DNA of 51,474 nucleotides, taken from the sequence record PZ445410.1. The stretch is one strand, 5' to 3'. This stretch comes from a phage. This document shows positions 1 through 50,945 of the stretch, one piece after another (position 1 is the first letter of the stretch; the number at the start of each line of letters is the position of its first letter). Made by a program: the position numbers and the translations under genes. The notes under the pieces are model-generated. The model did not search any database. It was not told the DNA's origin and worked only from the letters and a program-made list of their open reading frames with translations.

Positions 1-362
1 TTGGAGATGCGCCAATTGGCGGCGGGAAGACGTCAATTCAGCAAATCATTGGCGAGGAGATCCACAAGGCAGCCGTTAAAATGAAAGCACCTGTAGGCTG
101 GCGTATTGACAAGAGCGCCTTTGCATATCAAGAAATCGTAACGCAGGGCAAAATTGAAGATATGCCGCTTGGCGCTTCAATCATCGGCATCAGAGACAAT
201 AACGGCGACTGGAATGATGTTTCATTCCCTGTCAAGCGGATCGAGTTGCACGAAGACCTGATTTGCATCCTGGCGCATCATGGCAGCTATAAGGACAAGC
301 CATTCGCCGCCGAGCTTAACATCAAGCGCGGAACTATGGTTAAGTGGAAAGTCAAAGTGTAA
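1..362 (+). CDS. hypothetical protein, 3' portion (5' end outside window or continuous with the ORF at 50946..51474)
   Basis: Frame of track ORF 81..362 is open back to nt 3; no convincing RBS before the ATG at 81; same phase as the ORF running off the window end. Confidence 0.4.
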   Translation, partial: GDAPIGGGKTSIQQIIGEEIHKAAVKMKAPVGWRIDKSAFAYQEIVTQGKIEDMPLGASIIGIRDNNGDWNDVSFPVKRIELHEDLICILAHHGSYKDKPFAAELNIKRGTMVKWKVKV

Positions 363-363
363 A

Positions 364-405
364 TAGCACGAATTGTTAAAACTCAAATGTGGGGCCAGGT
401 ATAAT
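364..405 (+). promoter_or_regulatory. TAGCAC-box promoter-like cassette (TAGCACGAATTGTTAAAAC, spacer, TATAAT at 400-405)
   Basis: Conserved 19-nt element directly after upstream stop; GGCC..GGCC inverted repeat flanks the TATAAT; gene start 31 nt downstream. Confidence 0.5.
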
Positions 406-435
406 GGCCTCACTTTCAACGAAGGAGATAAAACG

Positions 436-654
436 ATGTACATTAGCAAGAAGATGAAATGCGTTTCCGTTAATTATGGTTGTGCTGGAATGTTCAAGCC
501 TGGCGAAATCTATACGGCGCAAAAACTGAAATCATCAACCGGATCCTTTTACGTCAGCAACAGCAAAGGGCATCGCATGTTCCTGAACGGAGGTGAAGGC
601 ACTAAGGTTATGGCACACGCTATGGTAATTGCTGAATTTGAGGAAGTGAAATAA
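436..654 (+). CDS. hypothetical protein (73 aa)
   Basis: Internal ATG of track ORF 373..654 preceded by AAGGAGA RBS; lies downstream of the promoter-like cassette. Confidence 0.55.
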   Translation: MYISKKMKCVSVNYGCAGMFKPGEIYTAQKLKSSTGSFYVSNSKGHRMFLNGGEGTKVMAHAMVIAEFEEVK

Positions 655-3707: not shown

Positions 3708-3995
3708 ATGGCTAAAAGCAATCGTAAAATGTTGATTAACGCATTCGAAAAGGAAGCGCTTGAGCGTGGTTGGAATGACTCATTTCACACAGCAAACTGT
3801 ATCCGCCGTTACGGATTCAAGGATTGCCGATCCTGGGCGCGTCAAATGGCTTCATGGTATGATCTTGATGCGCATTACCTTGATATGGATTGCGCCCTGG
3901 TTGAAATGATTGAGCAGGCCGCACTAGAGGATCGACCATTAACGCAATCTGATTTTGACGATTTTGTGCGCGATGAAATCTATTACATGAGCTAA
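3708..3995 (+). CDS. hypothetical protein (95 aa)
   Basis: AAAGGAGGAAA RBS before ATG. Confidence 0.55.
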   Translation: MAKSNRKMLINAFEKEALERGWNDSFHTANCIRRYGFKDCRSWARQMASWYDLDAHYLDMDCALVEMIEQAALEDRPLTQSDFDDFVRDEIYYMS

Positions 3996-4039
3996 TAGCA
4001 CTTTTTGTTAAAACTTCCGCGAGGGCATTTGTTAAAGTG
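3996..4039 (+). promoter_or_regulatory. TAGCAC-box promoter-like cassette (weak -10-like TAAAGT)
   Basis: Exact 19-nt motif directly after stop codon; gene start at 4071. Confidence 0.35.
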
Positions 4040-4070
4040 TCCTCATTGAAGCGAAACAGAGTAAATCAAA

Positions 4071-5710: not shown

Positions 5711-5852
5711 TTGCTCGTCATGTAGACAAAGTTTTGAATGTGAGGTTGAAGCGCGCGGAGAGCTTGAGGCAGCAGCAAGAGCAAAAGAGTTGTCCGGCGC
5801 TAATCAAGACACTCACCAGTTTTCAATAGATCTTGTAAGGAAAATGTCATGA
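5667..5852 (+). CDS. small Cys-rich hypothetical protein (start uncertain)
   Basis: Track ORF; CSSCRQSFEC. Confidence 0.3.
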   Translation: MKYKVRLTIRRMGRNCSSCRQSFECEVEARGELEAAARAKELSGANQDTHQFSIDLVRKMS

Positions 5853-6088
5853 GTTCTGTAATTATTGGTTTGGTTGCTTTAATCATTGGTGTTCTAATCG
5901 GCTTTGTTGCTGTATCTTTCGTGGTGGCTGTCGGTGTTCGCTATAAGTCAAAAAAAGGTGAATTTGCTTTAGCGTTTTGGGATGAAGAACAGAAAGTTTG
6001 GCAGGTTCGCGGTCACTATTTATCAATCGGTGGCAGGATTCACAGCACTATGAAGACAAATCCAGAAAAAGTAAAATACAAGTATTGA
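5849..6088 (+). CDS. membrane protein (79 aa, one TMD)
   Basis: IIGLVALIIGVLIGFVAVSFVVAV hydrophobic stretch. Confidence 0.5.
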   Translation: MSSVIIGLVALIIGVLIGFVAVSFVVAVGVRYKSKKGEFALAFWDEEQKVWQVRGHYLSIGGRIHSTMKTNPEKVKYKY

Positions 6089-8326: not shown

Positions 8327-9607
8327 ATGAGTAAATCACGAATCGTTAAGGCTGATGGCTATAACGAGATCTTTAAAGGCGAGAATTGCAAATCGCGAGT
8401 AGAGCAACCATTCTACATGCAATCAATGCCATACAAGACACTTGCTGACTTTTACGAAAAAGACGGCCTGGCAAAAAGGGTTATTGACGTAGTACCAGAG
8501 GAAATGGTTTCCCCTGGCTTCACGGTTGACGGCGTGGCAGACGAGGCAGCATTCCGTTCTTTGTGGGATGAGAAGCGATTGAATGCAAAAATTATTGATG
8601 CGCTTTGCTGGTCGCGTTTGTTTGGCGGATCTGCAATCATTGCTCTTGTTCAGGATGGTCGGGCGCTCAAATCACCTGTAAAACCTGGTGCCATGCTGGA
8701 AGACGTGCGCGTTTACGATCGTTATCAGATTCGCGTTGAAGCGCGAGAAACAAATCCCCGCAAGGTTCGCTATGGTGAGCCAGTGCTTTACACTGTAACG
8801 CCAGGCGGAGACTTGCCGGAATACCAGGTACACTACACGCGCGTTTGCATTATCGACGGCGAGCGGATACCTAACGCAAAGCGACGCAGCAATGATGGCT
8901 GGGGTGAGTCAGTTCTTAACAAGCGACTTGTTGAGGCTATTGTTGATTATAACTATTGTGAAACATTGGCAACGCAATTATTGCGGCGGAAGCAACAGGC
9001 TGTATGGAAGGCTAAAGGACTCGCTGACTTGTGCGATGATGAGGAAGGTGTTAGCGCGGCACGCCTGAGACTTGCGCAGGTTGACGACGAGGGCGGTGTT
9101 GGCAAAGCAATTGGTATTGATGCTGAGGATGAGGAATATGATGTTCTTAATTCTGACATCAGCGGCGTTGATTCTTTCTTGGAAAAGAAAATGGATCGCA
9201 TCGTTTCCCTTTCAGGTATTCATGAAATCATCCTGAAAAATAAAAACGTTGGCGGCGTTAGCGCAAGCCAAAACACGGCGCTTGAAACATTCTATAAGCT
9301 GATTGAACGAAAACGCATTGAGGATTACAAGCCTATCCTTGAATTTCTATTACCGTTCATCATTAGTGAGCAAGAGTGGAGCATTGAGTTTTCACCTTTG
9401 AGCGTACCTAGCGATAAAGATCAGGCTGAAATTCTGAATAAGAATATCGACTCAATCAGCAAGGCTATTGATGGTCAGTTCCTTGATGTTGAAGAAGCGC
9501 GAGACACGTTGCGAGCAATCGCCCCAAGCGTTAAACTAAAGGACACTAATAAAATCAAGCTGCCGGAGCCAGCGGAGCCGGAGCCAGGCACACAGGGGAA
9601 TGAGTAA
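8327..9607 (+). CDS. portal protein
   Basis: 426 aa; position after large terminase; acidic C-terminus. Confidence 0.7.
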   Translation: MSKSRIVKADGYNEIFKGENCKSRVEQPFYMQSMPYKTLADFYEKDGLAKRVIDVVPEEMVSPGFTVDGVADEAAFRSLWDEKRLNAKIIDALCWSRLFGGSAIIALVQDGRALKSPVKPGAMLEDVRVYDRYQIRVEARETNPRKVRYGEPVLYTVTPGGDLPEYQVHYTRVCIIDGERIPNAKRRSNDGWGESVLNKRLVEAIVDYNYCETLATQLLRRKQQAVWKAKGLADLCDDEEGVSAARLRLAQVDDEGGVGKAIGIDAEDEEYDVLNSDISGVDSFLEKKMDRIVSLSGIHEIILKNKNVGGVSASQNTALETFYKLIERKRIEDYKPILEFLLPFIISEQEWSIEFSPLSVPSDKDQAEILNKNIDSISKAIDGQFLDVEEARDTLRAIAPSVKLKDTNKIKLPEPAEPEPGTQGNE

Positions 9608-26982: not shown

Positions 26983-27013
26983 TTTGGTGTCTCCTTAGTT
27001 GTTGTTGGTTGCA

Positions 27014-27055
27014 ACTATACACGATCTTGCGGTGGGCGTTTAGCAAAAAGTGCCA
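27014..27055 (-). promoter_or_regulatory. TAGCAC-box variant (TGGCACTTTTTGCTAAACG) with TATAGT
   Basis: Motif at canonical spacing, oriented toward the lipoprotein gene. Confidence 0.4.
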
Positions 27056-27119
27056 TTCTGTTCTTTTTGTTCTCCTGCGTTCTCAAATCTGCGGAGGCTT
27101 AAATTTAGCTCAAAATGTG

Positions 27120-27330
27120 AGCAACAATAGAGCGATATACATACAGATAAATATATATACATACATATAAATCAATAAGTTAGTAGTATATATATTTATA
27201 TTTGTTCTTTATTGTTATCTATGTTTTGTGTGATTTTGTGTGTCTGGTGATTTTTCTGTGATTATGTATGTGTCAGTGGTTGTGTGTGTCTATATATCTA
27301 TATCCGGCGCAAATTGAGGAACAAGAGAAC
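27120..27330. repeat. AT-rich, C-depleted iteron-like element, copy A
   Basis: Shares AAATCAATAAGTTAGT...TATTTATATTTGTT core and GT-rich GGTGAT/GTGAT word repeats with 49265-49480. Confidence 0.6.
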
Positions 27331-27359
27331 AAAAAGACAACAAAGATATTTATCAATCA

Positions 27360-27373
27360 CTTACATGTAAGTT
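27360..27373. promoter_or_regulatory. perfect 14-bp palindrome ACTTACATGTAAGT (operator-like)
   Basis: Perfect dyad 55 nt upstream of the exonuclease promoter -35. Confidence 0.35.
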
Positions 27374-27427
27374 TTGTTATCAAAGATGTCTAGAACGTTG
27401 TTAGAACAGAAAAAACAAAATAACTAT

Positions 27428-27455
27428 TGACTAAACGCATCAAATAGCTACAATG
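27428..27455 (+). promoter_or_regulatory. sigma70-type promoter (TTGACT, 16 nt, TACAAT)
   Basis: Near-consensus hexamers; A/T-rich upstream region. Confidence 0.55.
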
Positions 27456-27483
27456 CAGACATACCAACCAATGAGGGCAAATC

Positions 27484-28953: not shown

Positions 28954-29610
28954 ATGAAACTATCAGAGCAATTCGACAAGGTTTTACCAGCACTGCATAA
29001 GGCGCGTAGTTTGTTTGTAAAGGTGAAGAAGGATAAGCAAAATACGCACCTTAAAAACCGTTACGCAACACTTGATGCCGTACTTGATGCAATCACTCCA
29101 GCATTGAACGATAACGAGCTAATGTTGATGCAGGATATGATTGAAAGCGAACAACCTAACAGAATCAAGGTTGAGACAACAGTTCTTCATGTTTCTGGTC
29201 AGTGGGTTAAATTTTACGCAGAGCTACCAATCGTCAAAAACGATCCTCAAGGCGTCGGATCTGCATTCACATACGCGCGTCGTTATGCAGCCGCAGCAGC
29301 ATTTGGCTTAAGCCAGGCAGACGATGATGCACAAATTGCTGTTAAATCTGCAAACGACTGGAAACGTGACATTGAGAAATGCGAGAGCGTAAACGAATTG
29401 CAAGAAGTGCTAAAATCAGCATGGAAGGCAAGCGATCCGGCAAGCAAGCAGGTAATTAAAGAGCATTACGAAAAGCGCAAGGCAGAGCTTGAGATCGGCA
29501 AAGCACGAGGATTTAATCCAGCGCAACCAAAGCAAAATCTTGCCTCGCCAGAAGTTGACACAAAAAACGACGAGCAAGTAAAATCACAAAGTATCACTGA
29601 TTTTGAATAA
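28954..29610 (+). CDS. ERF-family single-strand annealing protein (putative)
   Basis: [12 protein letters not shown] motif as recalled for Erf proteins; between exonuclease and SSB. Confidence 0.55.
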
Positions 29611-29654: not shown

Positions 29655-30107
29655 ATGCATATTATTACTGGTGAGATCCGAAAAGAGCCGCGAGTAAAGC
29701 AAATGCCTAACGGCAGCACACTTTATGTAGTTGAACTTCCAGAGCGATACAAAGATAAAGATGGAAACTGGCAATATACAAACTACAGTTTCTTTTTTAA
29801 TGCTAAAACAGAAGGTATTAAGGGTTGGTATGATGAGGCGTTCCAGGTTGGCAAGGTTATTTCTGTATCTTGCGACACTCTGCGCATTGAAACGCGAGAA
29901 TACAACGGAAAGATGTATTCAAGTTTAATGCCAGGAGGATTTGCAAATCTTATCTTCAGTCAGCGCGGGGAAAGCCAGCAACAATATCAGCAGCGAACGC
30001 AATGGGGATGGGGCCAACCACAACAACAGAATCAACCGCAACAACCGCAACAGCCAAGACAAAGCAATCAGCCACCTATGGATTTTGACGACGACATCCC
30101 TTTTTGA
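29655..30107 (+). CDS. ssb: single-stranded DNA-binding protein
   Basis: OB-fold-like N-terminal region, Gln/Pro-rich linker, C-terminal tip DFDDDIPF as in E. coli SSB. Confidence 0.85.
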   Translation: MHIITGEIRKEPRVKQMPNGSTLYVVELPERYKDKDGNWQYTNYSFFFNAKTEGIKGWYDEAFQVGKVISVSCDTLRIETREYNGKMYSSLMPGGFANLIFSQRGESQQQYQQRTQWGWGQPQQQNQPQQPQQPRQSNQPPMDFDDDIPF

Positions 30108-30111
30108 TCAG

Positions 30112-30136
30112 TAAAGGGGCATTACGCCCCTTTTTC
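30112..30136. terminator. bidirectional intrinsic terminator
   Basis: AGGGGC-ATTAC-GCCCCT flanked by A/T runs. Confidence 0.65.
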
Positions 30137-30379
30137 ACCCTCAGCCATCCCAAGAACAGCAATCACCTTAACAGCAATTCGCTTTGCAAGTTCAGTTTGA
30201 TGAGCGTTCAGCTTTCCAGTGGTCATTATTGACAACATTCCGCTCATACTTCCAAGCCCGTTAAAATCTGACATTGCCGATTTCATGATTGATATTGGTG
30301 AGTGACCCTCATCAGCTATTGTGTGCGCTCTCTCTGACAGGTCTTTAACTACCTGAGCAATTCCTTCACTTTTCGTCAT
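30122..30379 (-). CDS. hypothetical protein (85 aa)
   Basis: ORF, last gene of a minus-strand operon. Confidence 0.45.
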   Translation of the reverse strand: MTKSEGIAQVVKDLSERAHTIADEGHSPISIMKSAMSDFNGLGSMSGMLSIMTTGKLNAHQTELAKRIAVKVIAVLGMAEGEKGA

Positions 30380-32793: not shown

Positions 32794-33062
32794 TCCCTAA
32801 GTTTTTGATCCGTCACAACGGTTCTGCTATTGAATAATTTCGCATCGTAATTATCATTAATGATGCGAGCGTTCACAAAATAACCATCATTTTTCTCTAC
32901 AATTTCCTCTCCTTCTTCCGTTACAGATACAACAGTGTAAGTGTTCCCGATAACGTCGAGAAGAATTGCATCCTGAATGGATTCGTTTTCGTTCCATTCA
33001 ATTTCTTCAAGAAAGGCAGAAAACTCTGCCTTGTCTGCAAATTTCAGTGTTAAATCTCTCAT
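32784..33062 (-). CDS. hypothetical protein (92 aa), possible fibre assembly factor
   Basis: ORF coupled between fibre gene and S74-domain gene. Confidence 0.4.
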   Translation of the reverse strand: MRDLTLKFADKAEFSAFLEEIEWNENESIQDAILLDVIGNTYTVVSVTEEGEEIVEKNDGYFVNARIINDNYDAKLFNSRTVVTDQKLREWA

Positions 33063-35017
33063 TATACAATTTCCCCCAATTGATGATCTGTTAATGCCTT
33101 ATGCCAGATCCTAAAGTTTCTAATGTGTCCAAACAAATGGCGCTCTCCAGTTCCTGTTTGTCCGCCAAACCTGATATTTTTATCTCCTGTTACGCCTATG
33201 TAATCGCAGTATGAATCAGACACTGCTATAGCATTGGTGACAACATGAAATTTGCCATCAGATTTTGCAATGCATCCAAAAGTGGATTTTTTTGCAAACA
33301 CATCAGATGCCGCGCTATTAATATATGCCCCAGCAGGCGTTGATAAACTCATGTATAATTTTCCACTTCCTCTATTTATTGCCGCAATTGCTGATTGACC
33401 AGTATTTGCAGCAGCTATATCCCAAACACGAGGGGCAGAATTTGGAGCAACATCCCAACACTTACTAACCTCAAGCAAAAAAGTAAACGGCAATTTATAT
33501 AGGTTGTTTTTTGTTGGAATGCTAACAAGATCGCTAGCTCTCGTTGTTGGCATTGAAGTTATAATAAATGACGATGCTGTATTTCCAAGTTCAATTTGCG
33601 GCGTAGCCATCGTTAACGTTGAATCAGAATAAAATGGTTCGTTGTTAATTTTATTAGTCATGTAAAATGCACAATTAACAGTGTCAACATTTGTATTGGC
33701 TGTATATGTCGCTTGATAATACATCCATTCGCCATCCTGTTCCACTTTAGCGGTTATAAGTGAAGTGTCTCCACTTACCGATGCAACCAAAGTATCAAGA
33801 TCCAAATAAGAATCAGCAGAAAATGTATCTACTCCATCAATAATTGTAGACACTCGAAGCCTGCATCTTGCTTTAGCACCTTTAACCCTACAAGAAAAGG
33901 TGAAACTTTCACCTGACACCAAAGGGAATCTATCGGCTGTAACAACTCCATGAACGGTATAACCTCCAGTAGTACCAACAATACTTTCTACAGGGGTGAC
34001 TGTAGCGTAGTTAAAACCACGATCATCCGTTCCGAAAGTTTTATTTAAAGAAGAATGAATAGTCCAAGAATCTGTTTTATTTGAGTTTCTTAGATAGTTA
34101 GTTCTTTGCCCTTCGATTAAAAGACCTTCTTTTTCAAAACGAGGTTCGTCAATCTCCGCAACAGTCAATACACCTGATTTGTTAATATAAGTTGCTGTTG
34201 AAGCGCGTGAAAATGTAACTACTTTATCTGTTGGCATAGTTATAACATCATTACCAACTGTTATTTTTTTGTAACCAGGTGCAAAGCCTGTAATCATCTC
34301 AAGAGAATCATTAAACGGTATCCACACGTCGGGCAGCGGTTGCAATAAATCTTTGTAAGGTTCTGCGGCCTGCCTTGCGTATTCCTCCGCTTGATCTCGC
34401 GCACTTTCAGCTCCTGCCTTTGCAGTGTTCGCAGCGTTACGCGCGGATTCAGCGCCAGACTTTGCTGTTTCAGCGCCAGTCTTTGCAGTGTTTGCAGCGT
34501 CGCGCGCGGATTCAGCAGCGGTCTTTGCAGTATCAGCGCCTTTCTTGCTGTTTTCTGCATTTGTTGCGCTTTTCTTCGCGTTATTCTCGCTAGTTTTAGC
34601 GGCCTTCTGGCTTGCTGCGGCCGCAGCAGCATCGCTCTTTACGTCAGCCTGTATCTGTTGAAGTTTATCCCAATCAAATGTTTCGATGATCTCAATGAAT
34701 CTGGCAAATTCAGTTTCTTTACCCTGGTAATATCGCAGTGTTTCAGCGACATCTTGCGCCAGGCCATCAACAGTTATTGAATCATGAAGCATGATCAGAT
34801 AGTTTGTCTTTGCTACAACAGCGCCGCCAGTAGTAATGGCGCGAATGCTTGTGTCGCTAATAACCTCAGTGATTACAGCGGCTTGCATTGGATTTGTTAA
34901 GAAAAATATTGTTGCACCAGGGCGAATGAGTGTTAGCTGTTCGCGCCATTTTGTGCCGTATCCAGTTATATAACCTTGCGCGTCCATTGACGCCTGTCCG
35001 GTTCTGTAAATTGCCAT
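33062..35017 (-). CDS. side tail fibre protein
   Basis: T7 gp17-like N-terminal virion-attachment region, Ala-rich tandem repeats, C-terminal lectin-like region; GGGAG RBS at chosen ATG. Confidence 0.65.
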
Positions 35018-35073
35018 GCGTTTTCTCCCATGTTGTATGTTAATGTCAATGCAGATAATAGCATTTGACAAGG

Positions 35074-35115: not shown

Positions 35116-36048
35116 TTAGAGAATTGATTCAGGTTTGAAAACCTTCCTCTCTATCCCTTGCCTGTAATTATCATTAATCGGCATCATAATTTCAAGTCCT
35201 CTTTCCTCGGCAGCAATGATCGCGTCACGGTCTGTACTCTTACAGACAACTCTCATTCTTCTGTTTCCCTTATACCTGTAAGCCACAATCTCAATGTTAG
35301 TTGCATCAAAGCAGGCCCAGACCTCTTGACCAGTTGCAAGGTGGATGTGTTGCGCATCAATCCAGTCAACGCAAAGATAGATCGTCTTATCTGTACTTCC
35401 TGTTCTCACAATCGACCCTCGCGTGTAGTCCTTTGCGAGAAAAGACTGATTGCCGTCTTCATCAATGAAAAGCACATTGCACATTTCATCATCAATCTCA
35501 TCTGAGTGTACCAGGTGACACGGTAACGCGTGAATGTATCGGCCATCTTTTACGCCGCAATCATAATGACCATCTTCAGGCGGGTATATTCCTTCATATG
35601 TGCTTAACGGCGTGCGATCAAATTTTAGTGTTTTTGACATAACGCGCTCGCAGCATTCATGGCTTGCCTGTTTCCCAAACGAATAACCAGAATCACGAGA
35701 TACTCGCTTATTTGCCTTGATCCTATAGTCCTGCGGAACTTTTCCAAGAAAACGGCCCAAAATATTGATCACTTCGCTGTAAGGTTCTCCGGTTAGCTTC
35801 ATGATCCAACCAATTCCGGTATCATTACCGCACACGTTGCAGATCGCACCGCCATCGCCTTTTTTATCGCCAAGTTTATCCGTCCATCTGAAGCGATCCT
35901 TTCCGCCGCAGTGTGGGCAAGATTGATGCTTTCCGTTAAAAACTTCATTTGGAAGACCGCAAATACTTTGTAGCGCCTCACGCCACAATCCTTGCATATA
36001 TGGGAGAACATCTTCCTTTTGATAAACCATAAAGTTTTCGTTATTCAT
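35116..36048 (-). CDS. DNA primase (zinc-binding)
   Basis: CPHCGG...CNVCG zinc-binding motif; acidic DEIDDE / DEDG region; GAGGTG RBS. Confidence 0.6.
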
Positions 36049-36103
36049 ATACACCTCAAACAAAAAAGCCTGACAGATGATAACATCATGCCAGGCATTG
36101 TTT

Positions 36104-36577
36104 TTAGCAATTAGTGCTTTCAGGTTTATACAGGAATCCGCCAGGTTCATAATCTGACATTCTTACCACTCGCAACATTTCACGCTTATCACATCTCTTT
36201 GTGAGCGGTTTGCCATTGGAATCAAATCGCAGGTCTGGACGACAGAATGATGCGCGATAGCCTTGACATCCATATTTTTTGTAATCGTTATGCACCTTTT
36301 GAGCGCCAGCGGCTGAAATCATACCGCGAACGCGCCACTGATTTACAGTTTGCTGGCTAACGTTAAGACGTTTTGCCATTGCTGACACGCTTCCGTAATA
36401 CTCAATAAGGATGTCAAGTCGCGCTTTTAGTCCGGCGCGCACTTCATCTTTTAAAACATAGTATCCCGTAGGGCGCTTGCGCTTCTTCTTATCCTTTCCT
36501 CTTCGAGTTCCGTTATTGCCATTAATTGTGCGCTTGTCAATCTTGCCTGTTGATACTGCGATTCGTTGCTCTTTCAT
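36104..36577 (-). CDS. HTH DNA-binding protein (Cro/YdaS-like)
   Basis: SVSAMAKRLNVSQQTVNQWRVRG helix-turn-helix; basic N-terminus; divergent from helicase gene. Confidence 0.5.
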   Translation of the reverse strand: MKEQRIAVSTGKIDKRTINGNNGTRRGKDKKKRKRPTGYYVLKDEVRAGLKARLDILIEYYGSVSAMAKRLNVSQQTVNQWRVRGMISAAGAQKVHNDYKKYGCQGYRASFCRPDLRFDSNGKPLTKRCDKREMLRVVRMSDYEPGGFLYKPESTNC

Positions 36578-38706: not shown

Positions 38707-39112
38707 TAAAGGCGATTATCTTGAGTTTTACGAAAGAGATCCGACGGATACGCTAAAAGAGGAATCACACCAGATTGGGGCGTTTCAATGGTTAACTTAT
38801 GCTCATCCTGAATTGCTGGCATGGCATACGAAAAACGAGGGCGACAAGGGAATCGCCACAGCAATGATGGATCAGCAAGCTGGACTTGTTAAGGGAGTAA
38901 GTGATTTTATCATCCTGATTGGATTAAAAGGCCGTTACCCGTTCGCGGCAATAGAGATGAAGCGCGTCAATAAGTCCGGCAAGGGGAAGGCTTCACCAGT
39001 CAGCAAGGAGCAAAAAGCCTTCTTGCGCCGCGTGCGTGAGCTTGGCGGATTCGCTGCCGTAACATACGGATATAAGCAATTCATGATCGCGGTAGAATAC
39101 ATGATGAAATAG
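38693..39112 (+). CDS. VRR-NUC domain nuclease (putative)
   Basis: PD-(D/E)XK-like VSDFIIL...AAIEMKR; SKEQKAFL...G pattern; overlaps helicase stop. Confidence 0.5.
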   Translation: MAMTDKGDYLEFYERDPTDTLKEESHQIGAFQWLTYAHPELLAWHTKNEGDKGIATAMMDQQAGLVKGVSDFIILIGLKGRYPFAAIEMKRVNKSGKGKASPVSKEQKAFLRRVRELGGFAAVTYGYKQFMIAVEYMMK

Positions 39113-39152
39113 CACTTTTTGTTAAAACAGGCGCGAAGGATTGCGCCATAAT
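39110..39152 (+). promoter_or_regulatory. TAGCAC-box promoter-like cassette (CATAAT at 39147-39152)
   Basis: TAG is the upstream stop; GGCGC..GCGCC inverted repeat in spacer. Confidence 0.5.
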
Positions 39153-39186
39153 AACACAAGTTCAACAAGCAACAGGTAATTAAGAA

Positions 39187-39892: not shown

Positions 39893-40153
39893 ATGCAGAA
39901 AGAAAGAAGAGTTGTACTTAATGAAGATGGCGAATTTCTTTTGTATCGCGCTATGGTATGCGATGCACTTGATAAAAACCCTAACGTGAAAAAGATGATT
40001 GATTGCGATCCGTGGGAATTTTCAAGCGCATTAGATATGAGCTTTGAGGAGACAAAAAAACTCCCACTTGAAAAATGGCACGAACAAATCAGAAATGACA
40101 TGCAAGAATTTGTCGATTCGTGGAATTTTCAGAACGGAATGATCCACCAATAG
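39893..40153 (+). CDS. hypothetical protein (86 aa)
   Basis: GGAG RBS then ATG; track ORF 39560..40153 extends this frame back over the methylase and is rejected. Confidence 0.45.
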   Translation: MQKERRVVLNEDGEFLLYRAMVCDALDKNPNVKKMIDCDPWEFSSALDMSFEETKKLPLEKWHEQIRNDMQEFVDSWNFQNGMIHQ

Positions 40154-40193
40154 CACTTTTTGTTAAAACGCCCGACCTTGTGTCGGGCATAAT
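40151..40193 (+). promoter_or_regulatory. TAGCAC-box promoter-like cassette (CATAAT at 40188-40193)
   Basis: TAG is the upstream stop; GCCCGAC..GTCGGGC inverted repeat in spacer. Confidence 0.5.
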
Positions 40194-40225
40194 TATTTCA
40201 TCAAAACGAACAAGAGGAAAACAAA

Positions 40226-41851: not shown

Positions 41852-41894
41852 ACTTTTAATCATTAAAATATAAATATAAATCATCAATTTAATT

Positions 41895-43370: not shown

Positions 43371-43413
43371 AATATACCCGATACGAGATCGGGAGTTTTA
43401 ACAAAAAGTGCTA
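43371..43413 (-). promoter_or_regulatory. TAGCAC-box promoter-like cassette (TATATT)
   Basis: Exact motif on minus strand; its TAG is the stop of ORF 43411..43605. Confidence 0.5.
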
Positions 43414-43605
43414 TTCAATACGCTTTACAGTAACCAACAAAACGCCGTCCTCATCACACAAATTATGCTCTGATATATCAAACGCTCGCATGTCAGAATG
43501 AATGAGCGTTAACATTGCGTGCATGAAGTCGTCATGTGAGATTGAACTTACGGCGCAGAACTTCAATATTTTGTCTATTAGCATTTGACGTAAACAATTC
43601 TTCAT
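43411..43605 (-). CDS. hypothetical protein (start uncertain)
   Basis: Track ORF; overlaps the next ORF by 74 nt so the true start may be internal. Confidence 0.35.
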   Translation of the reverse strand: MKNCLRQMLIDKILKFCAVSSISHDDFMHAMLTLIHSDMRAFDISEHNLCDEDGVLLVTVKRIE

Positions 43606-43926: not shown

Positions 43927-45510
43927 TTACCCCAGCAATGTTGGATTTACGAAAACAACGCCATTAATCACACAAATATAATTTCTTTCCTCAAGCATCG
44001 GAAGCAGTTGCGTTTCCATGCGCTTCATTACGCCAGCCTGACCAACAAACGGCTTAACTTTTCGTGCAGCCTCATATATGGCGCGAACATTCAAGATTCC
44101 CTTATTAGCCTTTCCGTGTCGAGTGATGATCTCGATTAGTTTACCCATTTCAGCATCATCACCAGCGTAGCCAGAAGCGTTGGCGGCGCTAATGTATGTT
44201 TTGCTCAACTCGCTAAACATCAACAATGCTTCCTGAACGGTTTCAACCTCAATTTCTTTCGACTTCTGAGGGTATCCACCAGGATTAAACCAGTTGCGGA
44301 TAGTGTGCAAAACTGAAGCAATCCTGATCACCTGCTTATCCATTTTGCCAAGCGCGCCGCGCAGCATTGTATGCGAATACTTTCCGCCATCGGCAAGGTG
44401 CGGTTCCATCTCCTGACGAGCCATGTTAAGAACTCGCATTGCTGATTTGCTGATCTTAAGCTGGATGTTTGATTCGCTCATTATGTTATGGATCAGCTTG
44501 AAATATTGGCTTTTCAGTTCCCCGTCAACAGGTTCATAAGTAGAATCACCGTTATCATCAACAAACTTTCTACGGCCTAAAAATGATTCCTCACGCACAA
44601 GCAAATAACGCTCACTTACACCGATACCGCGCGATCCTGCATCCATGATGGCATTGATTGTTTCATCCTGGGCAATTACCGCCATACAGCCAAGAGCTTT
44701 AAAACTCATATTGTTGTCAGCGTTTGCACGAGCTATAGAAACATGACCATGATCCCAGGCTTTTAATACAAGTTCGCTGTTGGTTTTACGTTCGCTATTG
44801 GCATATGTCAGACCTAAAAGGCTGTTAATACTCGTTGCCTCGTCTGAAATTACAGCAAAGTTTCCCTGGCGGTTGTTGATTCTTGCAAGTCCTTCCGGCG
44901 TGGTGTCGGAGACAGGGAAAACAATGTCACACATCTTTTCCAGTTTTTCTTCCAGATCTTCTTTCTCCTGGTATAGCGATTCCATATCAGCGCCGGAACG
45001 CTCGCTTTTCATCTCTTTTGCAAGACCTGCCAACTTTGCCTGAATCTTTTTTCTTTCCTTCTTTCGCTGATCGTTAATTCTTTCCACTTCTGCAACCATT
45101 GGAGCAAGTGCCAGGCTGTTAACGGCAGACTTACCAGTTGAAGGAGGCTGGCTTGTAACAACGTACAGAGCGGTTGGTTGATCCGTTCCGTGATACTCAA
45201 CCGTGAAGCGTCCAAGCATTGCAGCAGACACGCAGCCGATAAAATGCATATATGCCGATGATTCAGGGAATTGAACAGATCGAGCAATGTTGCGCGCCAA
45301 CTTTCCAACAACATCAACATCATTGCCAAGAGAAATTATAGGGTAGCGATCGTTTCCGTTATTAACATCATTAACCTCACCCCAAAAGCTGGACGATTGA
45401 CGGTATCCGTTTGCCTGAATGGACACGCGCACCGGAGACAATCCTTGTGCATCAGCTAATTCGATAATTTGTTTTGGTGTTAGTTTATTGGTTTCAAACG
45501 AAAAATTCAT
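43927..45510 (-). CDS. P-loop ATPase, putative replication protein
   Basis: Walker A PPSTGKS, Walker B FAVISDEA; 527 aa; AGGAG RBS. Confidence 0.55.
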   Translation of the reverse strand: MNFSFETNKLTPKQIIELADAQGLSPVRVSIQANGYRQSSSFWGEVNDVNNGNDRYPIISLGNDVDVVGKLARNIARSVQFPESSAYMHFIGCVSAAMLGRFTVEYHGTDQPTALYVVTSQPPSTGKSAVNSLALAPMVAEVERINDQRKKERKKIQAKLAGLAKEMKSERSGADMESLYQEKEDLEEKLEKMCDIVFPVSDTTPEGLARINNRQGNFAVISDEATSINSLLGLTYANSERKTNSELVLKAWDHGHVSIARANADNNMSFKALGCMAVIAQDETINAIMDAGSRGIGVSERYLLVREESFLGRRKFVDDNGDSTYEPVDGELKSQYFKLIHNIMSESNIQLKISKSAMRVLNMARQEMEPHLADGGKYSHTMLRGALGKMDKQVIRIASVLHTIRNWFNPGGYPQKSKEIEVETVQEALLMFSELSKTYISAANASGYAGDDAEMGKLIEIITRHGKANKGILNVRAIYEAARKVKPFVGQAGVMKRMETQLLPMLEERNYICVINGVVFVNPTLLG

Positions 45511-46214: not shown

Positions 46215-46257
46215 ATTATGCCAGGCTTTTACACCTGGCTTTTAACAAAAAGTGCTA
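46215..46257 (-). promoter_or_regulatory. TAGCAC-box promoter-like cassette (CATAAT)
   Basis: TAG is the stop of the methyltransferase-like gene; CCAGG..CCTGG inverted repeat in spacer. Confidence 0.5.
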
Positions 46258-46965
46258 TTTTGCGTTTGCTTCAAAGACGGCGCGAGCAAAACCGCGCGGT
46301 GTGAGGGAGCGGATCATCTTTGTGCGAGATGATTTTCCGCCAGTTTTGGCCCAACCAGGATTATCCTTGTCGTCCTCTTTCGGAAGGATTGTTGCGCGCG
46401 GAGGAATAACAAAACCGTTTCCAGTCCAAAGACATGTTTTCTTAAAGTACCGATCCCGCGCCGGAATAATATCAGGGAAGTCGGGATGCTTATCATCTTC
46501 CGGCAGATAGCCAGCATAATCGCACGGATGGAACGTATAATCAGGCTTGCGCCATAACGTTGACAGCTTGCCTACAGGATTCTCTATCATGTACGGAACA
46601 CCGAAATAATCAGCGATATGCGACGCAATTTTGCAAGTGTCGGCGGCCTCATCCTGGAAAGATGGATTCTCAAGGCGTTTTTTGGCCCAATGGCGAGATC
46701 CGCTATTTGCAAGGTCAGTGCATGGAGGGAATGCCATAATAAAATCAGGCTTACCCCAATTTTCAAGTTTTGCGGTATATTTGAATAGCTCATCAATCCA
46801 CACATTAACGTAAAAAATATTGTCGTGGATTATGCGCACTGATTGGTAGTCGCCATGATCTGCATCATCGTAATTAAAGCAAATGCACTTATATCCAGCG
46901 TCGGCCCAATCTTTAACAGCCTTTCCAGATCCATCAAACAAAGAGAAAATTAAACCTTTATACAT
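46255..46965 (-). CDS. compact C5-cytosine methyltransferase-like protein
   Basis: FDGSGK (motif I-like), FPPCTD (PC motif), MIENPVG (ENV-like) in canonical order; only 236 aa, no obvious target-recognition domain. Confidence 0.45.
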   Translation of the reverse strand: MYKGLIFSLFDGSGKAVKDWADAGYKCICFNYDDADHGDYQSVRIIHDNIFYVNVWIDELFKYTAKLENWGKPDFIMAFPPCTDLANSGSRHWAKKRLENPSFQDEAADTCKIASHIADYFGVPYMIENPVGKLSTLWRKPDYTFHPCDYAGYLPEDDKHPDFPDIIPARDRYFKKTCLWTGNGFVIPPRATILPKEDDKDNPGWAKTGGKSSRTKMIRSLTPRGFARAVFEANAK

Positions 46966-48081: not shown

Positions 48082-48124
48082 AATATACCAATCAGAGGCG
48101 CATCGGTTTTAACAAAAAGTGCTA
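48082..48124 (-). promoter_or_regulatory. TAGCAC-box promoter-like cassette (TATATT)
   Basis: Motif follows TAA stop of ORF 48126..; CGATGCGC..GCGCATCG inverted repeat flanks the -10-like box. Confidence 0.5.
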
Positions 48125-48125
48125 T

Positions 48126-48651: not shown

Positions 48652-48920
48652 TTCTTGATCTCCTCAGCAATAAATTTCAGGACTTTGCGCAAAAACACTT
48701 CATTATTGATGGTCGCTGGCAATTCCTCTTTCACTTCTTGCGGCAGGTAAACGTTGCCATGCCAGGTCAAGCAATCGTAGTTGATACGATAAGAGCAAAG
48801 CCACTCGCAATCGTTATCCGCTTCCCAAATGCAGAGTTGCAGAACATCGCCGAAGTCTTCAACAGTCAGGTCCAGACCGTGACGCTTTGCAAAGTTGAAA
48901 GTGGTTTTGCTGATGTTCAT
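48648..48920 (-). CDS. hypothetical protein (90 aa)
   Basis: First gene of leftward early operon. Confidence 0.5.
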   Translation of the reverse strand: MNISKTTFNFAKRHGLDLTVEDFGDVLQLCIWEADNDCEWLCSYRINYDCLTWHGNVYLPQEVKEELPATINNEVFLRKVLKFIAEEIKK

Positions 48921-48958
48921 TTGCTTTCTCCTGATGGGTATCTCGTTTCGATGGGATA

Positions 48959-49001
48959 ACTATACCAGGTTATCCCGATCGTGCTTTAACAAAAAGTGCT
49001 A
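48959..49001 (-). promoter_or_regulatory. TAGCAC-box promoter-like cassette (TATAGT inside GGGATAAC..GTTATCCC hairpin loop)
   Basis: Motif on minus strand at canonical spacing; first promoter of the leftward early operon. Confidence 0.5.
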
Positions 49002-49264
49002 TTTGCTGACTGGTCATTATTCCACATATTCCATTAATCAGGAATAACAGGAATAATTCATTCGCGATCACCTGGATTGTGAGACTTTGAGTTTGATCAA
49101 TTTTAATCAGTTGATTAACTTTTTGTGTGGAGGGGATAGAGAAATGCGGCCCTCTTGCATCCTTTCCGGCAATCCTGGCGCGCACATCTGTTATTTCTGT
49201 TCCCCGTGTTATCTCAAATAAGCCTCCGCACTTTTAGATAACAGAATCGGCGTTCATCAACAAA

Positions 49265-49480
49265 AAGAACAAAATAAAATTTATATATATACCCATAAAA
49301 TCAATAAGTTAGTTATATATGTATTTATATTTGTTATTTACTGTTGAGCTTGTTCTATTGGTATATGGTGGGGTGGTATTGTTTGTGGTGATATGTATGT
49401 GTGATTGTATATTTTTTAATCAATGGTGATGTGTGGTGATTTTTGTATGTATATATATGGGTATGGGGCAATCCTCCGTC
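49265..49480. repeat. AT-rich, C-depleted iteron-like element, copy B
   Basis: Shares core with copy A; three GGTGAT words; about 110 nt with almost no C on the plus strand. Confidence 0.6.
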
Positions 49481-49593
49481 AACCAAGTCAACAAGGTCAT
49501 TTTTAACAGAAAAACCAATGGCTTAACTGAAGCATTTTGTTATCTTTAAACACGCCATGCGCCAAAAATTGTTATTAAAACACAAAAATACAT

Positions 49594-49621
49594 TGACATG
49601 CAGGAAGGGCAAGGCAATAAT
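49594..49621 (+). promoter_or_regulatory. sigma70-type promoter (TTGACA, 16 nt, AATAAT)
   Basis: Consensus -35; A/T-rich upstream region. Confidence 0.5.
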
Positions 49622-49657
49622 GCATTAAGTTTAAACGCAACAAAAGGAGTAGATGCC

Positions 49658-50128
49658 ATGATCGAAGAAAATATTAGCACCATGTCGCGTAGTGAGTTCT
49701 GCGATATGCTTCGCGACCTGGGCGCGGCAATTGGTAGTGGTGAGCGTAATAATGTATTCATGCCAGCGCTTTTTTTGTGCGCTAATGTGGAGAACGGCGA
49801 AGCAATTACGGCATCGTACATGCGCCAGGTTGTCAACCGCGTACCTGAAGTAAAGCAAAAAGGCGTGATCAGCATTAAGCGAAAGGTGACTGATGAGGGT
49901 GATGGCTTTGTGTTTGCGCTCACTGAAGCCAAAAGCAAACCTCGTGTTCTGACTGGGGATGATATAGCGAAACTTGAAATCAAGTGGCGAGCAAAGTTTA
50001 TTGCTCAACTACTGAAAACACAGCCGCGAATCAGTGATCTGGAAGGTGAGCGCCTGGAGGGTGCGGCAATCGCACTTGAGCGAATGAATGAAATGCTCAA
50101 CGAGATGGTAAAGGTGGGGGATGAATAA
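49658..50128 (+). CDS. hypothetical early protein (157 aa)
   Basis: AAAAGGAG RBS before internal ATG of track ORF. Confidence 0.5.
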   Translation: MIEENISTMSRSEFCDMLRDLGAAIGSGERNNVFMPALFLCANVENGEAITASYMRQVVNRVPEVKQKGVISIKRKVTDEGDGFVFALTEAKSKPRVLTGDDIAKLEIKWRAKFIAQLLKTQPRISDLEGERLEGAAIALERMNEMLNEMVKVGDE

Positions 50129-50388
50129 TGAATAAGGCATTAATTGGAGTTTTGATTGCAATTGCTACCCTGACCGGATGCGAAAAGGCATCTGAATCAA
50201 CGGTAGTCGTAGGCGTGGAGTCAGATTTTAAAGTCGGTCGCCTGTTTACTGTTGATGGATGCACTGCGTACCGATTCTATGACAACGGTCGGGCAATCTA
50301 TTACACCAATTGTAAGGGCGCAACGGATAGCACATACCGCAGCGGCAAAAACGTAATGCACCAACAAGTCACAACAGATATGAAATAG
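50128..50388 (+). CDS. lipoprotein (86 aa), early-expressed
   Basis: Signal peptide MNKALIGVLIAIATLTGC with lipobox. Confidence 0.55.
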   Translation: MNKALIGVLIAIATLTGCEKASESTVVVGVESDFKVGRLFTVDGCTAYRFYDNGRAIYYTNCKGATDSTYRSGKNVMHQQVTTDMK

Positions 50389-50428
50389 CACTTTTTGTTA
50401 AAACGCCAGGTGCAAATCCTGGCATAAT
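50386..50428 (+). promoter_or_regulatory. TAGCAC-box promoter-like cassette (CATAAT at 50423-50428)
   Basis: TAG is the lipoprotein stop; GCCAGG..CCTGGC inverted repeat in spacer. Confidence 0.5.
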
Positions 50429-50460
50429 AGCCTCATCGAAACGAGATTGAGGAAAACAAA

Positions 50461-50661: not shown

Positions 50662-50847
50662 ATGAAAACGAAATTAGTCCATAAATCAGAAATCAAGATC
50701 GGCGATACTGTGATTCACAACGGAGAGCTTAGAACGGTTGGCAAAGAGTCAATAAGCCGCGATGAATTTATGGGGATCTTGTTGTTCGGTGACTCTTATC
50801 GGCTGGGTTATAAAATGGTTGAGCTTGTGGAAGAGGTAAAATTCTAA
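50662..50847 (+). CDS. hypothetical protein (61 aa)
   Basis: ORF. Confidence 0.5.
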   Translation: MKTKLVHKSEIKIGDTVIHNGELRTVGKESISRDEFMGILLFGDSYRLGYKMVELVEEVKF

Positions 50848-50848
50848 A

Positions 50849-50891
50849 TAGCACTTTTTGTTAAAACTCAAAAACGATAACCAGGCATAAT
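50849..50891 (+). promoter_or_regulatory. TAGCAC-box promoter-like cassette (CATAAT at 50886-50891)
   Basis: Motif directly after TAA stop. Confidence 0.5.
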
Positions 50892-50945
50892 ACACACATA
50901 GGGCGGCACGGCGTCGCCCAGTTAAACCAATCAGGAGAAAGCACT

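Follow-up and report, generated by a model that had tools for sequence, protein, structure and literature searches.

The locus examined here raises the question of why about 110 nucleotides (nt) of a phage genome should be almost devoid of cytosine on one strand, and what the larger element around them is for. It lies at 49.3 kb of sequence record PZ445410.1, and the window (the whole stretch of DNA that was analysed, 51,474 nt) is the size of a complete phage genome and is T1-like (Drexlerviridae, Tempevirinae, Hanrivervirus-like), sharing 93-95% identity around the C-free tract with phages phiE31-2, herni and SFP17. The analysis was computational throughout, and used sequence comparison, composition, folding and predicted protein structure. 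A composite non-coding element of ~370-400 nt is present twice in the genome, with the C-free tract as its right-hand spacer. The reading favoured for this element, with a probability of roughly 0.5, is a duplicated replication origin of the kind whose initiator is a self-loading helicase. T1 is one of the founding model phages, and in its family the origin has never been located. An oriC-like origin was looked for and not found in the SU57 paper (2020), the re-analysis of TLS (2024) searched for lambda-type iterons and GATC clusters and reported no such iterons 'anywhere else in the genome', and no T1-family origin, transcript map or description of these elements was found in the literature searched.

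The C-free tract and the duplicated element

An earlier note, made from the sequence alone, had described about 110 nt with almost no C and three copies of the word GGTGAT, and exact counting agreed with both of these claims. Positions 49265-49480 contain A60 C15 G47 T94, and the 113 nt at 49356-49468 contain a single C (T53 G37 A22 C1), a composition that is not random-like. The two longest C-free runs of the window lie here (49356-49420, 65 nt; 49422-49468, 47 nt; the next longest is 41 nt), whereas the base composition of the window gives an expectation of ~0.004 C-free runs of at least 65 nt and ~9e-6 113-nt stretches with no more than one C. The tract has the highest GC skew of all 113-nt windows of the genome (0.95), and the second highest (0.69) belongs to copy A of the element (27177-27289). 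The three GGTGAT words were found at 49387, 49425 and 49435, but their reading as iterons was dropped, as some 6-mer was repeated at least three times in 4530/5000 dinucleotide shuffles of the tract (91%), which places three copies of one 6-mer within chance for a low-complexity tract; in addition, their conservation is patchy and the recurrent words are different ones. These are TGTT[CA]/[GT]AACA, which are placed on either side of the C-free tract and do not fill it.

Several other readings of the tract were set aside. It has the period-2 T pattern typical of TG/TA alternation, and neither a 3-nt (DnaA-trio-like) nor a 10-11-nt periodicity was detected in it. A Chi-like reading was dropped because CTGGTG is not conserved, and a G-quadruplex reading because, on inspection, too few G3 runs are closely placed in the tract. 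A hydrophobic open reading frame (ORF) of 36 amino acids at 49319-49429 was rejected as coding sequence, its ATG being lost in BEC3 and its 3′ part in Fulano1.

Alignment of the two intergenic regions of the window (A, 26983-27483; B, 48921-49657) showed that the sequence upstream of the tract is repeated in copy A, as the earlier note had proposed. Positions 27169-27278 and 49298-49407 are 71% identical over 110 nt, and in the core (27169-27216 and 49298-49345) 43 of 48 nt are identical (90%); apart from this pair, no long tandem or direct repeats were found. The copies lie in the same orientation at 27.1 and 49.3 kb and follow one architecture that is conserved across genera, so that a shared function is very likely. 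The same plan was recovered in 16 copy-A regions (on contigs whose neighbouring exonuclease VIII is 63-99% identical to that of the window), in 10 copy-B regions, in both TLS regions and in Pseudomonas phage Motto. Its orientation pattern, <<< >> [AT] <<< [spacer] >>> < >> (with < for TGTT-type and > for AACA-type words), was seen in nine regions, and a scan of viral contigs with a 15-nt core gave mostly chance matches. Among the database relatives, ~20 unannotated 'Campylobacter phage' records marked UNVERIFIED (H22-H24, H29, H30, H41, H42) are ~90% (89-92%) identical to the coliphage region, and the host given for them looks doubtful.

From left to right, the element (Table 1) consists of block 1, with three TGTT[CA] words 9 nt apart; a GC box; block 3, with AACA words in an A-rich run; a (TA)n centre with the core AAATCAATAAGTTAGT...TATTTATATTTGTT; block 5, with three TGTT words 9-10 nt apart; the variable, G/T-rich and C-poor spacer; TATATAT and the box GGCGCAAAT; block 9, with GAACA words; a second site resembling that of integration host factor (IHF); TTTTGTTATC; GAACAGAAAAAACAA; and a consensus sigma-70 promoter. 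Each copy holds eight TGTT-type and seven or eight AACA-type 5-mers (first base relaxed), arranged in groups of two or three at intervals of 8-10 nt and pointing in opposed directions on either side of both the centre (block 3, >>; block 5, <<<) and the spacer (block 5, <<<; block 9, >>>). Blocks 3 and 5 of copy B form an inverted repeat around the core, and this pairing is present in the centroid of the DNA fold; block 3 is weak in copy A. The TTGTT/TGTT columns of block 5 are invariant in 18 intergenic regions of several genera, and the density of [GT]AACA reaches its genome maximum at both regions (7 per 300 nt vs a mean of 1.6).

Perfect matches to the IHF consensus WATCAANNNNTTR occur at 27170, 27351, 49104(-) and 49299, which means that 4/10 of the matches in the window fall in two intergenic regions making up 2.4% of the sequence. 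The host-factor site suggested in the earlier note gains support from this enrichment of predicted matches; the site is degenerate in Tlsvirus copy A. DnaA boxes (TTWTNCACA) have 3 matches in the window and 0 in either intergenic region, and no 17-22-bp direct repeats of the iteron plasmid, lambda or oriC type were found.

Both elements are also physical extremes of the genome. They contain its two least stable 100-nt duplexes (27135-27234, the least stable, 83% AT; 49266-49365, the second, 81% AT, z 4.8), and both rank lowest in duplex stability in 100-nt and 200-nt windows (z 4.7-5.3). Likewise, the two least foldable 113-nt windows on both strands are the two elements, with a minimum free energy (MFE) of ~0 vs means of -10.8 and -10.1 kcal/mol; the least foldable in the genome is 49301-49413 and the second lies in copy A. 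As single-stranded DNA, the tract at 49356-49468 has an MFE of -1.4 (+) and -0.9 (-) kcal/mol vs genome means of ~-10, G-C hairpins being impossible where one strand has no C and its complement no G. Cruciform or single-stranded structure of the whole region was not significant (z -0.03 and -1.08). Elsewhere in the window, the third least foldable 113-nt window is 5821-5933, the second least stable 40-nt duplex is 41854-41893, and a 63-nt tandem repeat (2.2 copies, 81% identical) is located at 34401-34540 within a long tail-fibre ORF (33062-35071, -).

Lineage-specific words, a candidate helicase and the origin reading

In phage T1, both long intergenic regions are again present and again have a (TA)n centre, but the words are different. 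TGTAACA/TGTTACA is present in 6 copies in these two regions and 0 in the other 47.6 kb, and CGATTAACA occurs beside the early promoter in three tandem copies with a 9-nt period. T1 and the Hanriverviruses share the host E. coli K-12 and yet have lineage-specific words, so the protein that binds the words is probably phage-encoded. There are two candidate readers, a Cro/YdaS-like helix-turn-helix (HTH) protein and the DUF3987 helicase. The helicase is predicted to have an MCM-like AAA+ ATPase core and a C-terminal winged helix (residues ~451-521), an assignment that came from fold comparison, as a sequence search against the PDB gave no match. The last 85 residues of the helicase also match phrog_7327, a separate PHROG family of unknown function, and no informative domains were found in the small proteins next to helicase genes.

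A distant test was offered by three phages (contigs L261, L262 and L263) whose helicases are 36-40% identical to that of the window and which carry similar elements near the helicase gene. In L263, TGGGGT/ACCCCA occurs 11 times in a 565-nt region directly upstream of the helicase operon and 0 times elsewhere in the contig (p 3e-24); a (TA)n centre divides this region, with two C-free runs (40 and 58 nt) to one side of it and one G-free run (36 nt) to the other, the C-free runs being present because the iterons are G/T-only and all in one direction. In L262, TGGGGT/ACCCCA words and (TA)n lie just downstream of the helicase gene, and the divergent promoter region of the replication operons has neither words nor (TA)n. 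In L261, CTTACA occurs 10 times upstream of the helicase-primase-helicase-exonuclease genes vs 11 times in the other 21 kb, and the region contains an A/C-only (AAC)13 tract (9395-9430), a TTGACT promoter and a box, GGGCGCAAATC, that resembles the one in Drexlerviridae. This type of element thus travels with the helicase family, each lineage having its own word, and C-free tracts on one strand recur.

Under the origin reading, the winged helix of the helicase would read the words, IHF would bend the core, and divergent or outward transcription would supply negative supercoiling. The (TA)n centre would melt and the bubble would extend into the C-free tract, which may be where helicase hexamers, SSB and primase load unhindered, because neither strand can form hairpins. 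The lack of C in copy B may derive in part from G/T-only words and their degenerate copies, all in one direction, and perhaps also from selection (or from C-to-T deamination) acting on a strand that spends much time unpaired. The two copies may be two origins (compare SPP1 oriL/oriR) or an origin and a helper site (compare P4 ori/crr). A more specific version is put forward tentatively, in which the G/T-only tract would be a composition-selected loading zone, an MCM-like helicase placed by opposed 5-nt iterons would open the (TA)n, and the copies would be paired origins. Among the three functions that had been offered for the element (bidirectional origin, host-factor site and an unusual transcript), the origin is the best supported, although GGTGAT is not its iteron.

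Several findings weigh against an origin. Cumulative GC skew tracks gene orientation and gives no independent origin signal, and the helicase gene is adjacent to neither copy in the window, lying at least 3.4 kb away. The comparison of winged-helix recognition helices with words (GVMKR where the word is GAACA, GVMTR in a lineage with GTAAC, KVAER in T1) is suggestive at most, and block 9 is degenerate in copy B and clearer in copy A. Both copies are directly upstream of consensus early promoters, a position that a transcriptional role fits equally well. Finally, copy A does not avoid C (8/23 changes create it), and in Fulano1 the C-free tract has been replaced by a shorter, C-containing one, which indicates that extreme C-freeness is dispensable.

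Table 1 Coordinates of the two copies of the element, their promoters, and associated genes and regions (window positions unless T1 is named; < and > as in the text)
Feature	Position	Strand	Remarks
Copy B, whole element	49189-49590	+	
Copy B block 1	49189-49211	+	TGTTA, TGTTC, TGTTA, 9-nt spacing (<<<); conserved in copy A and across genera
Copy B GC box GCCTCCGCACT	49222-49232		Invariant in 11 Hanrivervirus B copies
Copy B block 3	49257-49280	+	CAACA and GAACA in A-rich run (>>)
Copy B (TA)n centre and conserved core	49281-49331		Contains AATCAATAAGTTA at 49299-49311, a perfect IHF-consensus match
Copy B block 5	49332-49355	+	TGTTA, TGTTG, TGTTC at 10- and 9-nt spacing (<<<)
Copy B C-free G/T/A tract	49356-49468	+	Variable-sequence spacer between blocks 5 and 9; (TA)n and GGGTATGGGG at 3′ end
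Copy B box CAATCCTCCGTCAA, then block 9	49469-49512	+	CAACA, TAACA (>>)
Copy B block 11 (TTTTGTTATCT) and block 12 (TTGTTATTAAAACACAAAAATA)	49535-49590	+	Directly 5′ of -35 hexamer
Copy A, whole element	27059-27426	+	Same orientation as copy B
Copy A block 1	27059-27082	+	
Copy A GC box GCGGAGGCTTA	27091-27101		Inverted relative to copy B box
Copy A (TA)n centre and core	27135-27216	+	
Copy A putative IHF sites	27170-27182, 27351-27363		
Copy A block 5	27203-27226	+	
Copy A GT-rich, C-poor spacer	27232-27300	+	
Copy A box TCCGGCGCAAA	27303-27313	+	
Copy A block 9	27319-27345	+	
Copy A blocks 11 and 12	27371-27424	+	
Sigma-70 promoter TTGACT-16-TACAAT	27427-27454	+	Exonuclease VIII / Erf / SSB operon
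Sigma-70 promoter TTGACA-17-AATAAT (consensus)	49593-49621	+	Rightward early operon
T1-type 21-nt repeat	48962-49004	-	Promoter-like motif of leftward operon; neighbour, outside the element
DUF7174 gene	49658-50128		First gene of rightward early operon
Zn-ribbon/Toprim DNA primase	35116-36150	-	Helicase partner
Cro/YdaS-like HTH protein	36104-36577	-	Next to primase
DUF3987 helicase	43927-45510	-	Annotated 'DNA helicase/DUF3987'; candidate initiator
T1 (L002) intergenic regions	29851-30377; 48675-48836 plus 1-538		

Alternative explanations

In the main rival reading, which is possible if somewhat doubtful, the element is a control region of the early promoters, a role that is not mutually exclusive with that of an origin. 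A phage regulator (e.g. a Cro/YdaS-like HTH protein) and IHF would bind the words in a looped complex that boosts the sigma-70 early promoters and later shuts them off, as at the Mu operator or phi29 A2c/A3, and the C-free tract would be only a bendable spacer. Position argues for such a role, as each copy ends 2-3 nt short of a consensus sigma-70 promoter, blocks 1 and 12 lie against the upstream regions of promoters, block 12 looks like an A-rich UP element, and the elements of L261 and L263 are likewise upstream of operons. The enrichment of IHF-consensus sites is consistent with it, and so is the presence of a Cro-like HTH protein whose recognition helix differs between the window and T1. 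However, the best-conserved part of the element, the (TA)n core, is 250-300 nt from the promoter, and at least 10 sites with an AT-rich centre would be unusual for an operator. The words of L262 lie downstream of the helicase gene and not in its divergent promoter region, Tlsvirus copy A has lost the leftward promoter and kept the entire left half of the element, and no such element accompanies a third near-consensus sigma-70 promoter in the window (TTGACA-18-TAAAAT, 29555-29584, within the erf 3′ end and just 5′ of ssb).

Both promoters that the earlier note had placed on the flanks of copy B were recovered (Table 1), the leftward one as the T1-type 21-nt repeat motif described in PMC11447400. 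The note's description of the two copies as standing at both early switch regions was right on the rightward side, each copy being upstream of a consensus sigma-70 promoter, but less so on the leftward side, where the promoters belong to a genome-wide 21-nt class and none is present at Tlsvirus copy A. Inside the element, neither sigma-70 promoters nor terminators were found on either strand, and none faces the tract. The 21-nt repeat itself, AAATAGCACnnnTTGTTAAAA, has at least 16 sites in the window (e.g. 361-380, 3993-4046, 39107-39160, 40148-40201, 50383-50436 and 50846-50899; on the minus strand, e.g. 43374-43414, 46218-46258 and 48085-48125), always in the orientation of the genes and followed by a short hairpin and, ~22 nt downstream, CATAAT/TATAGT. 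It looks like an activator-dependent promoter class; its function was an open question in the TLS paper.

It is unlikely that the C-freeness has no function and is a by-product of G/T-only word copies and (TG/TA)n, or of C-to-T deamination, in a spacer of roughly fixed length. Such a spacer would account for the rapid evolution of the tract, which keeps pace with its flanks (in 10 Hanrivervirus copy-B sequences, 41 changes over 113 sites), for the 10-18 C of the homologous spacer in several genera, and for the period-2 T pattern, as well as for the replaced tract of Fulano1 and the changes in copy A given above. The nature of the changes in copy B does not agree with it. Changes creating C make up 4/41 in the tract vs 46/133 in the flanks (Fisher p 0.0015), and T-to-C changes were seen at 3/52 T sites in the tract vs 25/108 in the flanks; a tract that changes fast and rarely gains C suggests that composition, and not sequence, is kept in this copy. 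Moreover, C-poor or G/T-only tracts of unrelated sequence recur in Tlsvirus and L024/L026 (C-free runs of 45-77 nt), L261 and L263, and the sequence to the right of the centre is T-rich with more G than C in 48/52 regions.

A role of the tract at the level of RNA is quite improbable. A leftward G-free RNA would serve as a Rho-loading (rut) site, a kind of site that calls for at least 70 nt of unstructured, C-rich and G-poor RNA, and would insulate the core from antisense transcription; or a rightward transcript, C-free and rich in G, would form an R-loop and so prime replication, as in ColE1 and T4 origins. The predicted leftward RNA (A53 C37 U22 G1, 33% C, MFE ~-1 kcal/mol) would suit the first version. 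The second would be suited by the G clusters GGTGGGGTGG and GGGTATGGGG, which lie on what would be the non-template strand of a rightward transcript, and a strand asymmetry like this one could come from deamination of a displaced strand. These RNAs have no evident source, as no sigma-70-type promoter lies in or faces the tract on either strand, the genes to the right are all rightward, so that no leftward transcript is expected, and in Tlsvirus an intrinsic terminator blocks rightward entry. A C-free RNA would also be unable to form a stable structure, and Rfam covariance models gave no match at the gathering threshold anywhere in the window.

It is very improbable that copy B is part of a packaging (pac) recognition region: the GenBank records of T1 and TLS do start within the copy-B intergenic region, the T1 terminal repeat is annotated at 1-2800, the TLS pac site was mapped by restriction digests, and cos and pac sites typically combine IHF sites with repeats, but the same element is found in copy A, 22 kb away beside recombination genes, and T1 position 1 aligns not to the C-free tract but to an insert specific to copy B (~49090) that is far better conserved and a better pac candidate. 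This insert (49005-49190, 185 nt, without counterpart in copy A) is nearly invariant in 10 Hanriverviruses, exceeding its flanks, and includes a palindrome at 49017-49058 (TTATTCC-ACA-TATTCC-ATTAAT-C-AGGAATA-ACA-GGAATAA). T1 has TCATTATTCCA...CTGGAATATCTGGAATAA ~57 nt before GenBank position 1, where the terminal repeat starts, and the TLS record starts nearby with C-free GATTT repeats. The insert is a candidate pac or terminase site. At 48970-49215 (-), relatives annotate an ORF of 70-110 amino acids; its start codon is GTG in phiE31-2 and GAG here, most substitutions among relatives change the amino acid, and it is probably not a gene.

Comparison with known systems

The Mu operator and the phi29 early/late switch have many short sites in both orientations and an IHF-type bend near divergent promoters. 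Unlike the element described here, those regions have no (TA)n centre or strand-asymmetric tract, and there is one per genome. With iteron plasmids, lambda and oriC, whose initiators bind the unwinding element on one specific strand, the element shares an AT-rich unwinding element flanked by repeated sites, IHF sites and nearby transcription, and it differs from them in having neither 17-22-bp iterons nor DnaA boxes. SPP1 (oriL/oriR) and P4 (ori/crr) each have two separate cis sites with the same short repeats by AT-rich DNA and one phage initiator, which in P4 is the primase-helicase alpha; one SPP1 origin lies inside the initiator gene. G38P and alpha are unrelated in sequence to the proteins found here, and the repeats differ.

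In staphylococcal pathogenicity islands (SaPIs), the Rep proteins are helicases that load themselves and that bind, through a C-terminal winged helix, 6-12 iterons of five or six nt; these iterons surround an AT-rich centre, no fewer than two to a side and in opposite directions, and the Rep2/Cch type is MCM-like (PMC9371898). The element resembles the origins of SaPIs and of the staphylococcal cassette chromosome mec (SCCmec) with its Cch protein in having several 5-6-nt iterons, an AT-rich centre and at least two opposed iterons on each side, and the phage resembles SaPIs in encoding a primase apart from a helicase for which a C-terminal winged helix is predicted. It differs in being a virulent phage of a Gram-negative host with two copies per genome; each copy, at ~400 nt, is much longer and contains six blocks of words, sites matching the IHF consensus and a long tract with strand asymmetry. 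The SaPI origin is immediately 3′ of rep, whereas here the distance to the helicase gene breaks this adjacency; adjacency is seen in the distant relatives, downstream of the gene in L262 and directly upstream in L261 and L263.

Should the version with a composition-selected loading zone be true, T1-like phages would have their first defined origin, and one constrained in base composition rather than in sequence. The finding would also explain how the flanks of some origins can be constrained in the former and not in the latter. For annotation, it suggests that a (TA)n centre, when accompanied by inverted arrays of short words and by a strand-asymmetric tract in the neighbourhood of a DUF3987 helicase, marks a candidate origin. 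If the two elements are origins and the DUF3987 protein acts as an MCM-like initiator-helicase on words of 5-7 nt that differ between lineages, replication of the T1 type would become directly testable, and a large family of virulent phages would be linked mechanistically to the SaPI and SCCmec replicons.

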